A DNA stretch of 64,000 bases from Gemmatales bacterium (lineage in GTDB: Bacteria; Planctomycetota; Planctomycetia; Gemmatales; HRBIN36): contig JBEPZY010000005.1 of NCBI GenBank assembly GCA_041640595.1, positions 96,001-160,000 of the forward strand, written 5' to 3'. The notes under the pieces are model-generated. The model did not search any database. It was not told where the DNA came from and saw only the letters and a program-made list of their open reading frames with translations. This document shows positions 3,211-8,323 of this stretch, piece after piece. Both the position numbers and the translations under genes were made by a program. Numbering within the stretch: the first letter of the stretch is position 1; each line of letters starts with the position of its first letter.

Positions 3211-3321
3211 GCCCGTCAACTTGTTCGTCGCAAACAAGAGCGGGGAACGTCATCCCCCGTGGTCATGGTAACGTGACCGTCGGGGAGAAACGCATATCTG
3301 CAACAGCATGCGCACATGCAG

Positions 3322-3896
3322 CCAGGAGCGGCTGGCGTAAGCCAGCCGTGGTGCGTGAACGTACCCGTTTCACCAGCAGGAAACGCGCTTCGGCAGTGAG
3401 AGCCGTCCACACTATCAAGAGCGGCTGGCGTAAGCCAGCCGTGGGACGCGGGCGTGCTCAGTTGAGGAAAAACGCTTGCATCTGCAATTGCGTTACCGAA
3501 CCACGGCGGGCTGATGTCCGCCGCTCTTGGTCGGATGTGCGGACGTCGCCGAACAGTGCGCGATGTTTACCGCACGACGTTCGCACCACATACCACGGCG
3601 GGCTAACACTTGTCGCTCGTGATTCGGCGGTCGTGGTTCGCCGGACGTTATTCGCTGTGCACTGCCCGCGCGGCCGAATCGAACCACGGCGGGCTAACGC
3701 CCGCCGCTCTTGGTCGGATGTGCGGACGTCGCCGAACAGTGCGCGATGTTTACCGCACGACGTTCGCGCCACATACCACGGCGGGCCGACGCCCGCCGCT
3801 CTTGGTCGGATGTGCGGACGTGGCCGAACAGTGCGCGATGTTTACCGCACGACGTTCGCGCCACACACCACGGCGGGCTAACGCCCGCCGCTCTTG
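3322..3896. repeat. REP/BIME-like palindromic cluster 1 (2 forward + 5 reverse units)
   Basis: GAGCGGCTGGC-GTAA-GCCAGCCGTGG at ~3325 and ~3418; CCACGGCGGGC-TRAC-GCCCGCCGCTCTT at ~3501, 3593 (degenerate), 3684, 3776, 3868; ~92 bp period. Confidence 0.9.
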
Positions 3897-3996
3897 GCCT
3901 CGTTTGTTTCCTGGGGGAATCGCTTGGCCGCCTGTTCGCCGATGGCTCGTGCGTGAGCGGAGATGCTCGATGCAGCCCACAGCGAGGGCGCGGTGC

Positions 3997-5019
3997 CTAC
4001 TGCGAACCGCTACCTTCCGGACGGAAGAACGGGAAGATCCGTCGCGGTGGTGAAGAAGGTTGCGGTTGCGGCTGTGGTGCGGGTGGGTTGGGCGTCAAAG
4101 GAGCGATTACCGGGGATTCGTTTCCGCCAAGGCTTTGCGCCAGCGGCAGGAAGTTAATGCGTTGCGTCTGCCCTGCCTGGACAGTGATCTCATGTTCCGT
4201 GGTAATCGGCTGTCCGTTGGGTCCCGGCCAGGAAAGACGGATTTTGTACAGGTAAGTCTTGCCCGGCTGCAAAGGTGGCGACTGGAAACTTCGCACCGAA
4301 CCGGTTTGGCTCATGCGCTGATCTTCGATCCAGAGCGTGGCCTGCGGGGGAACTTCGATAATCAGGATCGCGGGAGCCGGTTTCTGCGGTACCACCGGAG
4401 TAACCTTGCTTCCAGCAGTGCCGGGCGGCGTGGTGCCAGCCGATGCCGAAGGCGGCGTTGCAGGTGGCTGAGGAGGTGAGTCAGCAGTTTGCACGGCAGG
4501 ACTGAGCGGACGTGGTGGCTGGCTGTTCGACGGTACTGGCGGAGTTGGTGTTGGGGCTACCGGCGGATTTACCGTTGTGTTCGGTGCTGGCTGGACGGGC
4601 ACGGGGATCGCTGGTTTGCTGGGTTCAATGGGCGTGGTGCCCGGGGAAGGGTTCGGGATGGTCGGTGGGGTAAGGGGCGGTGGAAACTCGATGGGTGAAT
4701 TGCCTGAACCTGCTGGCTTGTCCACGGTGGGTTTCGCCGGCGGGGTCGGGTCAGAATCCGTCGCTTCGGGTTTCTGTTTTTCGATTGGGCGGACGGTGAG
4801 TTGCTCGATGGCGGGAGTGGTCGGCTTGGCCGTCTCGGTCGGGACCGGTGCAGGAGTCGGCGGTTTGGTTGCCGATGGCGGAACTAGTTCCGGACCTGGT
4901 GGCGGTGGGGGTAACGGTGCCTGGCTCCAGCTCGCCAGCGCTGGGGTCAGGACGACCAGCATTGCCGCCGACCAGTTCCGCAAGCAGGTGAAAACTCGCC
5001 TGTGCGATTCCTTCCGCAT
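3997..5019 (-). CDS. Secreted proline-rich protein with planctomycete TIGR03000-type domain
   Basis: Signal-peptide-like N-terminus, long P/T-rich linker, C-terminal 'AILIIEVPPQATLWIEDQRMSQTGSVRSFQSPPLQPGKTYLYKIRLSW..EITVQAGQTQRINF'. Confidence 0.8.
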   Translation of the reverse strand: MRKESHRRVFTCLRNWSAAMLVVLTPALASWSQAPLPPPPPGPELVPPSATKPPTPAPVPTETAKPTTPAIEQLTVRPIEKQKPEATDSDPTPPAKPTVDKPAGSGNSPIEFPPPLTPPTIPNPSPGTTPIEPSKPAIPVPVQPAPNTTVNPPVAPTPTPPVPSNSQPPRPLSPAVQTADSPPQPPATPPSASAGTTPPGTAGSKVTPVVPQKPAPAILIIEVPPQATLWIEDQRMSQTGSVRSFQSPPLQPGKTYLYKIRLSWPGPNGQPITTEHEITVQAGQTQRINFLPLAQSLGGNESPVIAPLTPNPPAPQPQPQPSSPPRRIFPFFRPEGSGSQ

Positions 5020-5544: not shown

Positions 5545-6915
5545 ATGGCCAAACGAAAACGCACAGAGTTCTACCGACCGCACCTGACTGCCACAGTTCG
5601 TCGGCAGGCGAAACCGTATGCTCCGGTTCGCTCATGGCTGAAGCGGTTGCAGCAGCTGAACTGTTTGTGGCAAAGCGGTTGGCCGGGACAGGAATTGTCA
5701 TCGGACATGGCTTTCGCGGTATCGGCTGGAAATCTTGCACCGCGCGAGTGTTACCGGTTTCTTGCCTGCCTGGGGGCACTGCGACGCACACGGTTGATGG
5801 AGTTTCTGCCGGCACAAAGGCGCGCGGAAATGCGAACACCCTTTTCCGAGTCGGCGTGCGACATTGCAACGGCAGCTGCTCCCAGAAGCGTCGTGCCGAT
5901 TCTGGAAGAGCCGGCGCCGTTTGTTCCTCAACGTTCCAGCTGGTTCGGGCTGGCCTGCCAATATGCGCAGCTGTTGGGCTGGGCAGAACGCTTTTACCGC
6001 CAGTTCGGACTGATTTTGGTCAGCAAAGGTCTCGGAATGTTTGATGCGGGAAAATGGTGGCAGCAGGCCGAAAAACTGGTGGCCGCAACCGAGTTTGTGG
6101 ACTTGCCAGAATGCTCCGACCGAACAATGCAACAACTGACCAGACGCGTTCGCCGGCTTTGGGACGAACTGGATAGAGCCGATTTGTTTGTTGCTCTGGC
6201 AAACCTGACGACCTTTTTCAGCGAACCAGCCGACTGGGAAAGGGTCCGCGTCGTAGCAGGAGTATCGCTCTCGGCTGACGAAGTGTCGCAACAATTGGAC
6301 GCATTGCAATCACGGCTGGCCGAAGTTCACAGCTGGCTCCGCGAACATCCGGAACCGTTTCTGCTTATTGACGCCTATATTCAAGCGGTGGCGGCAGGCT
6401 TTCGCAAGGATTTGCGCCGCTACGGGGATTTGTATTTGACCGCCACGAAATACGCGGCCATGCTCGATGCACTCGAAATAGCCGAAGGCGTTGCCCCGAT
6501 GTTCCGCAAAGCCGCGCGAGATCTGCAAGCCGAACTCGCATGCCTGCGGCAGGACGACGTGAGCCAGTGGTATTATCCGCGCTCGGAAATTCTGCCACCG
6601 CTTCTGGCCGCGGCGAGCGGCACGGCAGCTCCGGCGCGGATTCTGCGCTGGGAGGCTCCGGATAAACGCTATCGGGCAGCGATGCTGATTCGCGGCAACG
6701 GTGTGGTGCTGCGGTTTTTCACGCGCCGGGGCACCACGGCAAACTTCCTGGAAGGCGAACAGGTTTACCTGGCTGGTGTACCTGCCACGATTGATGAAGA
6801 CGGTTGGGCGATCATCCCTCTGGAAGAATTGCTCCAGTCGGAAGAAGACCTGTATCTGGAAGTTGGCAAGCAGCGTGTTCGCTGGCGCCCTTTGCAGCAA
6901 CGCACGCCCAACTGA
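5545..6915 (+). CDS. Hypothetical protein; candidate substrate/partner of the adjacent Lon-CARF protease
   Basis: 456 aa ORF, helical N-part, LLAAASG linker (aa 353-359), ~97 aa beta-rich C-terminal domain; co-oriented 79 bp upstream of the Lon-CARF gene. Confidence 0.65.
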   Translation: MAKRKRTEFYRPHLTATVRRQAKPYAPVRSWLKRLQQLNCLWQSGWPGQELSSDMAFAVSAGNLAPRECYRFLACLGALRRTRLMEFLPAQRRAEMRTPFSESACDIATAAAPRSVVPILEEPAPFVPQRSSWFGLACQYAQLLGWAERFYRQFGLILVSKGLGMFDAGKWWQQAEKLVAATEFVDLPECSDRTMQQLTRRVRRLWDELDRADLFVALANLTTFFSEPADWERVRVVAGVSLSADEVSQQLDALQSRLAEVHSWLREHPEPFLLIDAYIQAVAAGFRKDLRRYGDLYLTATKYAAMLDALEIAEGVAPMFRKAARDLQAELACLRQDDVSQWYYPRSEILPPLLAAASGTAAPARILRWEAPDKRYRAAMLIRGNGVVLRFFTRRGTTANFLEGEQVYLAGVPATIDEDGWAIIPLEELLQSEEDLYLEVGKQRVRWRPLQQRTPN

Positions 6916-6994
6916 CCGACCCGGCCGCTGGCATTCGCTCCGCTGCTCCGGCAGACTGCTACCGCAGCACGGCAAGCGTCGGGAGAGCACGGCC

Positions 6995-8323
6995 ATGCCT
7001 TTAGACCCCCAGCGCTTGTTGGAGCTATTCCAGAAAACGCACGAAGAGCTGTTGCCCCTGGAATGTTGGGACCTGTACGAATATCTCGGCAATTTCATAC
7101 CGCTGTGGTTTCGTCCGGAGGTAGTGCAGCGCGTGGAAGAGGAGACAACGGTTCGTTTCGAGAAACCGCAATTGCCGCAGGATCGGGGATCGTGCTGGAT
7201 CATTTTTGCGCTGGGCTTAGCTTCGCAGTATCCGATGCTGAAGCCGGCTTTCGTCTTGCCGCTGCAATGGCAATGCCAGCCGGAACATGACCGCCGTCTG
7301 CCCGCCAGGTTGAAAGAGTTGGCGGATCGGGTTCGCCGGGCACTCAACCAGGCTTACCGCGACGAAGAATACCTGCGCTGGCGACTTTACATGCATCCCA
7401 ATTTCGCTATTTCCGAGACAACGCCGGATTTCAGCGGGCTCGATGAACAGCTCCGATTCGAATCCGGCTGGTTAGCTCTGGCAGGAGGCCTGTATTTAGC
7501 CCGGCATAACGGCCAGCCGAGCGAATACGTTTGGGCATCGGCTCGCTGGGATGAAGAAAAAGGTATCCTTCGCGTCGGGCATTTAGTTGAGAAACTGGAG
7601 CTGGCCCAGGAATACGGTGTCCGACAGTTTTACATTCCGGATGAACAAATCAACGAGGTGCCGGAACTGTTCCAGGGTATGGTCAAGCCGATTCGGCAAG
7701 GGACGAACCGGTTGCAAGAGGTGCTGGATAACTATGTCTGTGCCCTGGACGTAAGGCCCGCCTGTCCTCCCAGTAACGAAGAGAGCTTTCAGCGTTGCCG
7801 CGATTGGTATCTGCGCCAGCCAAGCCCGGACCTCCGCTATTACTGCACCTGTCTGCTCCCCTACCTGTTGCCGCGACTTCAGCACCAGCGGCGATCCGAT
7901 TGCCAACCGGAAGTGCTGGTGACTGTCTTGAGCCATAGCTGGAACCTGATCCCGCTGATCGCCCACACCTTCGAGGTCAAGCGGTGCGTTGTCCTGGTCA
8001 CCGCTGGTGATGAAAGAACGCACCATTACAGCGAACCAGTACGGCAGTTTCTGAATGCGTTCGGGCGGCGCGTCGAACTGATAGAATGTGAGTTTTACGA
8101 GGAGCGGATGGAAGAAAACTTTGGCGCTCTCGAAATCTGGGAACACTACCGTCAGCGACCCGAGAAAATCCTGGTGGACATGACGCCGGGTAAGAAGCTG
8201 ATGACTCTGCACTTGTACAGGTCGGCCCCTCGAGGTTGCTGGCTGGTGTACGTCAACACCGAGCAACGCCAGAACCGTCCGGTTCCTGGCTCGGAAAAAC
8301 TGGTTTGCTGGCAGCGCGACTAG
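6995..8323 (+). CDS. Lon-type (S16) Ser-Lys protease domain fused to a C-terminal CARF domain
   Basis: FES157GWLALAGGL...VWASARW..GILRVGHLVEK200LELAQEYGVRQFYIP (S-K spacing 43); CARF motifs VLVTVLSHSWNLI..VVLVT and ILVDMTPGKKLMT; GGGAGAG ribosome-binding site before ATG 6995. Confidence 0.75.
   Translation: MPLDPQRLLELFQKTHEELLPLECWDLYEYLGNFIPLWFRPEVVQRVEEETTVRFEKPQLPQDRGSCWIIFALGLASQYPMLKPAFVLPLQWQCQPEHDRRLPARLKELADRVRRALNQAYRDEEYLRWRLYMHPNFAISETTPDFSGLDEQLRFESGWLALAGGLYLARHNGQPSEYVWASARWDEEKGILRVGHLVEKLELAQEYGVRQFYIPDEQINEVPELFQGMVKPIRQGTNRLQEVLDNYVCALDVRPACPPSNEESFQRCRDWYLRQPSPDLRYYCTCLLPYLLPRLQHQRRSDCQPEVLVTVLSHSWNLIPLIAHTFEVKRCVVLVTAGDERTHHYSEPVRQFLNAFGRRVELIECEFYEERMEENFGALEIWEHYRQRPEKILVDMTPGKKLMTLHLYRSAPRGCWLVYVNTEQRQNRPVPGSEKLVCWQRD

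Follow-up and report, generated by a model that had tools for sequence, protein, structure and literature searches.

The two adjacent genes at positions 5545..8323 of the window, by which we mean the whole 64,000-nucleotide stretch of Gemmatales DNA that was analysed, probably encode the protease and the anti-sigma factor of a transcriptional switch triggered by cyclic oligoadenylates (cOA), working much as CalpL-CalpT-CalpS does, with the sigma factor encoded elsewhere in the genome. This view draws on sequence comparison, structure models and analogy, and the most likely reading is that of a CARF-sensing analogue of the CalpL-CalpT-CalpS system, with a different sensor and different anti-sigma parts, split across the chromosome. 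The downstream gene fuses a Lon catalytic dyad to a Csm6-type CARF domain, the upstream one encodes a conserved partner in which a helical domain and a beta-sandwich flank an Ala-Ala site, and the family shows linkage both with sigma-like genes and with type III CRISPR.

The protease gene, P0001 (6995..8323; all features given here for the two genes lie on the plus strand), encodes a 442-aa protein that matches the PADLOC profile PDLC01981 (CARF_m2--CARF_LON) over its full length (aa 4-441 on 2-408 of 408, E 7e-115). The name CARF_m2 / CARF_LON presumably stems from the 2020 CARF classification (Makarova et al. 2020), which may describe neighbours. In fold searches, the predicted structure of P0001 matches Lon protease and the cA4-binding CARF domain of Csm6. 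The preliminary description had proposed a Lon-CARF architecture with an intact Ser-Lys dyad and expected structural matches to Lon_C/S16 and CARF; both were found, with an ATPase-less S16-type Lon domain at aa ~57-254 (7163..7756) and a CARF domain at aa ~302-442. Ser157 (7463..7465), the predicted nucleophile, and Lys200 (7592..7594), the predicted base, are 43 residues apart and occupy the positions of the Ser in EGDSAS and the Lys in GVTQK in an alignment to A. fulgidus Lon. Both are invariant in 145/145 relatives. None of these 145 has a Walker A motif, and the P0001 model leaves no room for an ATPase domain. A canonical ATP-dependent Lon was rejected for P0001, as the AAA+ module with its Walker A motif is absent.

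This protease family is already catalogued and is not new. The earlier claim of a new system therefore went too far where the protease is concerned, given the full-length profile match and the section on CARF-Lon in a 2022 review (PMC9704534). That section presents these effectors as bioinformatically predicted, speculates on cleavage of host proteins or promiscuous cleavage, and gives no substrate, sigma factor or operon. We found no experimental study of the family in the literature searched. It is not a small one, with 378 representatives at E<=1e-30 in a profile search, and it is sparse in the phylum, where 12 of 401 genomes have any match, six of these in the CARF part only. The closest named relatives of the protease are Gemmatales. 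A truncated form of 307 aa, without most of the Lon domain, occurs in two loci (L053:708-2569 and L054:2124-3985), directly after a degenerate sigma-like ORF and with a RAMP gene near.

The C-terminal domain of P0001 (7898..8320) is a single CARF of 140 aa with a Rossmann-like fold and a DxTxGxK motif, as seen in the model, the profile and the alignment of the 145 relatives. Its closest solved counterpart is the CARF domain of T. thermophilus Csm6 (TtCsm6), which binds cA4 (profile match to 5FSH, E 7.6e-12). The motif, D395-M-T-P-G-K-K401 (8177..8197), keeps its Asp in 142, its Thr in 128, its Gly in 141 and its Lys in 124 of the 145 sequences. Residues S315, T336, T397, G399, K401, Y419, R428 and E434 of P0001 align with S60, T81, T133, G135, K137, Y161, R173 and E179 of TtCsm6, and most of the cA4-binding residues, as assigned in the part of PMC10897365 that deals with them, are thus kept. 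Going by this conservation, a CARF dimer of P0001 would bind a cyclic oligoadenylate. The positions of TtCsm6 T59 and N164, involved in cA4 cleavage, differ in P0001 (H314 and T422), which makes a self-limiting ring-nuclease activity uncertain. The effector parts differ as well: an HEPN RNase in TtCsm6, a Lon protease domain in P0001.

The partner gene, P0002 (5545..6915; 456 aa), has no clear match in Pfam, PADLOC, NCBIfam, the PDB or the atlas. Its model (pLDDT 80.5) consists of a helical domain, a loose, low-confidence linker and a beta-sandwich. The N-terminal domain (aa ~15-336; 5587..6552) is modelled as all-helical, with pLDDT mostly 80-95 over aa 130-310, and the model and its predicted sigma contacts mark it as the putative sigma-binding part. 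The beta-sandwich (aa ~362-450; 6628..6894), which carries a W-x-[SA]-P-D motif, may be the docking domain for the protease. That P0002 is a dedicated substrate and a putative anti-sigma factor is suggested by conservation of the gene pair and by a fusion. A search with a profile made from six close P0002 homologues first placed the partner directly upstream of the protease gene at numerous distant loci. Dereplication at 85% identity reduced 44 proteases to 37 clusters, of which 30 were full-length with at least 1.2 kb of flank; the partner lies directly upstream of Lon-CARF in 25 of these 30 non-redundant loci, and weakly in one more (L024, E 0.02), it being understood that later partner profiles were seeded with many of the counted sequences, that several counts share seeds and that the loci are related. 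Directly upstream of the remaining four proteases no partner was detected: three of them are orthologues at the same site (L025-L027), and the fourth is a Cas10 fusion (L023). In P0033, partner and protease form a natural fusion. The dedicated partner gene put forward in the preliminary description is in keeping with all this.

The predicted cleavage site of P0002 is L354-A355-A356-A357 (6604..6615). Ala-Ala ends at the A356 column in 28 of 29 aligned partners and A356 itself is invariant, the next best separate Ala-Ala column reaching 13/29. Its distance from the C-terminus is 97-126 residues, the residue before it is hydrophobic in nearly all cases, and hydrophobic-Ala-Ala recurs at the same place in 6/6 partners outside the 29-sequence alignment. 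According to the relevant sections of two preprints, the cut in CcaCalpT falls within LAAA, after the second Ala, and the LAA degron so exposed is needed for sigma release (bioRxiv 10.1101/2024.05.08.593097), and SsCalpT is cut between HVA and ST (bioRxiv 10.1101/2021.12.06.471393). By analogy with CcaCalpT, and in line with the conservation, P0002 would be cut after A356, leaving a ...LAA degron at the new C-terminus. Sequence and structure-database comparison detected no homology between P0002 and CalpT.

In the usual operon order, a sigma-like gene is followed by gene X (~250 aa), the partner and the protease. A sigma-like gene is found upstream in 17 of the 23 loci with at least 3.5 kb of flank, and four of the six others are accounted for by the window and its orthologues, which share one chromosomal site. 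The sigma family profile matches ECF sigma structures (E 2e-8). Independent sigma matches, confined to region 2, exist for several members; the long-type members L138 and L141 gave no sigma match. From the lack of a sigma gene nearby, the preliminary description had concluded that the output might be different. The frequency of sigma-like genes in the family speaks against this conclusion, as do the CalpT-like Ala-Ala site and the predicted binding of P0002 to a sigma-like protein on another contig. One locus (L024:4461-9163), divergent from cas10, comprises genes for an ECF-like sigma, a 279-aa ORF, a partner-like protein with HxxxCxxC and a Lon-CARF fused to a Csx16 / STIV B116-like ring nuclease domain. 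The third gene has no library match and carries LRAAA and a partner-like C-terminus; we take its HxxxCxxC to be the zinc anti-sigma motif.

Three genomes (G424, G425, G426) have sigma and X followed by the helical domain of the partner alone, fused to SF2 helicases, and neither the Ala-Ala linker domain nor the protease has a match in them. At L142:5191-10487, L143:6453-11133 and L144:4903-9517, sigma and X are accompanied by a partner N-domain that is joined in frame with a helicase of the SNF2 or the DEAD/MrfA type, a Cas10 match being absent from two of these three genomes. Since the helical domain stays with sigma and X in helicase fusions without the protease, the roles of the two partner domains seem to be split, which agrees with a sigma-binding N-domain; the make-up of L024 points the same way.

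The genome to which the window belongs (G000) also has a complete four-gene paralogue, with sigma-like gene, X, partner and Lon-CARF, among housekeeping genes of contig C1 (C1:438593-442639; L022:9594-13640). On contig C2, a long-type sigma-like gene and a partner paralogue occur with no protease (G000:C2:151615-154299; L057:8616-11300), upstream of an S1/P1 nuclease gene, and the same order is found in L078-L080. In a FastTree phylogeny, P0001 is nearest to the intact sigma-X'-partner-protease operon of G409 (support 99), whose partner P0002 joins with weak support (88/65). In G403, the P0002 orthologue has sigma and X' beside it and the protease stands alone. The missing sigma gene of the window locus looks like the result of a secondary split of the four-gene module and, as partner and protease have stayed together in the window but not in G403, the module appears to have been split in different ways. 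The sigma and the X'-like neighbour ancestrally linked to P0002 were not found in G000, a 95% complete genome, and the window copy may thus lack its cognate sigma.

The nearest sigma that G000 still has is the C2 protein (350 aa; G000:C2:153247-154299). It matches region 2 only (TIGR02937, E 9e-5, below cut-off), has no Pfam sigma match, and aligns over aa 1-111 with the short-type sigma family at 95.9% in HHalign. Complex prediction for P0002(1-356) and this protein scored 0.75, the best of three controls scoring 0.01; the mark of 0.75 was reached by 116/157 solved complexes and 2/215 mismatched pairs, a calibration that holds only roughly for our own alignments. The runs agree in at least 44% of contacts, the partner has a pLDDT of at least 74, and the predicted contacts of P0002 (aa 182-195, 267-274 and 309-337) fall mostly on the C-terminal helices of the sigma. 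The model supports binding of P0002 to the C2 sigma-like protein. As close cousins of a true partner also pass this test, the result supports the role of the family more than the exact P0002-C2 pairing.

The conserved fourth gene, X, counts against the main reading, which does not account for it. X (e.g. L022:12128-12868 and L034:8048-8797) has invariant Trp residues, a conserved His and a VTxYY-like core, and a related X' is exemplified by L138:6890-7783 and, in two overlapping ORFs, by L077. One might suppose that the partner is mainly an antitoxin or scaffold from which cleavage would release X, perhaps an RNase of the BECR type, either by itself or together with sigma, with dormancy or death as the output. 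In the lineage of the window, where the cognate X was not found, the pair would then act in trans on the C1 X, or on sigma only. In favour of this, most complete modules have X or X' next to the sigma and partner genes or between the two, X keeps company with the partner N-domain in the helicase fusions, and it has the conserved His and core. However, X has no match in Pfam, NCBIfam, PADLOC or the PDB, and its weak atlas connection to PBECR3 nucleases (0.80, rank 25) is a lead only, as are all atlas scores <0.9. As C2-type loci have sigma and partner without X, and the partner passes the complex test with sigma, we regard this explanation as unlikely.

Alternatively, the window copy might be a decoupled remnant, in which a cOA-responsive protease cuts the C1 or C2 partner paralogues, and P0002 serves as a decoy, competitor or docking adaptor and holds no sigma in vivo. 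The loss from view of the cognate sigma and X' in G000 would be explained, as would the orthologous proteases that stand alone in three genomes of the genus and the C2 pair of sigma and partner without a protease. Yet P0002 is intact and beside the protease also in a second lineage at 50% identity (L031), keeps LAAA and passes the complex test with the C2 sigma, which makes this scenario quite improbable; its sole difference from the best reading lies in the partner from which sigma is released.

Death of the host through promiscuous cleavage of essential proteins by a cOA-activated protease, along the lines speculated for CARF-Lon in the relevant section of PMC9704534, would suit the copies that stand alone (L025-L027) and the fusion to Cas10 for which no partner was detected. 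We consider it very unlikely, as the genomes with stand-alone copies carry two to three partner genes elsewhere, and a dedicated substrate is indicated by the neighbouring partner gene, by the fusion and by the conservation of the Ala-Ala site.

The link to type III CRISPR emerges at several levels. Four Cas10 ORFs of G000 have GGDD, in III-B (C8), III-D (C3 and C1) and III-A (C23) loci, and judged by this motif the genome appears to possess cyclase-competent Cas10. These genes lend weight to the activation in trans envisaged in the preliminary description. Repeat arrays resembling CRISPR arrays occur on C1, C8, C10 and C20. A Cas10 palm match exceeds the cut-off in 12 of the 13 family-carrying genomes (in one only just), and no Cas10 match was found in the thirteenth, G082 (75% complete); the background is 83/401 in the phylum sample and 14/41, counts that are inflated by GGDEF proteins, and the carrier genomes are kin rather than independent. 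Relatives of the protease lie beside cas10 or RAMP genes (L024, L028, L029, L032, L034, L050), Csx1 (L021) or Csx15 (L045). In L023, Lon-CARF is fused to the N-terminus of Cas10 in a protein of 1118 aa (L023:5828-9184), and the three upstream genes match none of the module profiles. Many copies are far from cas genes, including both in G000, and this, together with G082, might suggest a CARF ligand of non-CRISPR origin, such as RNA ends or another nucleotide, in a general stress switch; the Cas10 and Csx16 fusions, the cas10, RAMP, Csx1 or Csx15 neighbours in many loci and the Csm6-like cA4 pocket make this hardly credible. Further CARF genes of G000 are a short N-terminal piece resembling Csx1, next to cmr6 (C8:30351-30746), a 418-aa CARF protein near a repeat array (C20:1957-3213) and a Can2/Card1-like gene in a III-D locus (C1:12536-14002).

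In the CalpL-CalpT-CalpS-like switch that we regard as probable, cA4 would be made by one of the type III complexes of the genome and bound by the CARF dimer, which would switch on the Lon domains. The partner, docked via its C-terminal beta-sandwich, would be cut after A356, and the new ...LAA end would commit the helical domain to ClpXP-type degradation. The sigma-like factor so freed, most likely the C2 protein here, would alter transcription of its target genes. As the module is split in this genome, both the signal and the sigma would act in trans.

The resemblance to the known system, as far as the published parts consulted describe it, extends over several components. Like CalpL, P0001 is an ATPase-less Lon with a Ser-Lys dyad, an N-terminal helical part and a C-terminal cOA sensor, and P0002 shares with CalpT its place beside the protease, two domains, and an LAA-type site that precedes a beta domain and is ~100 aa away from the C-terminus; a sigma-like gene and the type III link are further common points. 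The sensor is SAVED in CalpL and CARF in P0001, whereas the MazF-like anti-sigma domain of CalpT is replaced in the P0002 model by an all-helical one. The C-terminal domain of CalpT, CalpT10, is of the DUF2080 / Ig-like kind. CalpL-CalpT-CalpS co-encodes an ECF-like sigma that the substrate binds; the window locus has no sigma gene, a sigma-like gene is present at 17 of 23 family loci, and its binding by the partner is a prediction. The type III-E Craspase system (Csx29, Csx30, Csx31, CASP-sigma) also combines protease, anti-sigma substrate, sigma and an extra gene, as set out in the sections of PMC10028731 consulted, and one short-type sigma has a match below cut-off (E 1e-7) to the III-E sigma model. 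The Craspase protease, in contrast, is a cysteine protease of the CHAT type that direct contact with Cas7-11, rather than cOA, activates, and PDB searches detected no similarity of P0002 to Csx30.

What appears to be new here is the substrate and the output proposed for CARF-Lon, the predicted protease family being known already. The module is undescribed in the openly accessible literature searched: no mention of it occurs in the sections covered of PMC11229360, PMC10910872, PMC6546367, PMC10028731 and bioRxiv 10.1101/2023.06.23.546230, or in those of PMC12669027, part 2 of its supplement 1 included. A bolder proposal, in which our confidence falls somewhat short of even, is that of a previously undescribed four-part CRISPR signalling module, made up of a CARF-Lon protease, a helical anti-sigma with a built-in Ala-Ala degron, an atypical sigma and the co-held possible nuclease X, which would have reached the CalpL-CalpT-CalpS logic by convergence. 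In this lineage it would form a genome-wide network that is spread over three contigs, comprises two proteases, three anti-sigma paralogues and two sigma-like factors, and reads four type III systems in trans. In genomes that lack the protease, its sigma-X-anti-sigma core would have been connected to SF2 helicases instead.

A predicted and apparently unstudied effector, for which indiscriminate killing had been guessed in a review, thus receives a testable substrate, cut site and output. If the switch works as proposed, P0001 would be the first CARF-dimer-activated protease among those that we found described, and the pair would represent another independent solution leading from a CRISPR alarm via protease and anti-sigma to transcription, with different parts and the same LAA degron. 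The stand-alone and split Lon-CARF copies bear on cOA signalling between loci. Since relatives are recorded from hot springs, the protease, which is compact, probably thermostable and would be gated by cA4, could with its short Ala-Ala site be useful in RNA sensing.

Two further observations concern the surroundings of the gene pair. A contig identical over the protease (L030:1-444) has a different upstream ORF, asparagine-synthase-like by eye, where the window has the 3997-5019 gene, which suggests a rearrangement or misassembly. The stretch 3273-4050 of the window is intergenic and rich in repeats; contig depth there is very high and RNA runs show many loose ends, which hints at a repeat element present in multiple copies.
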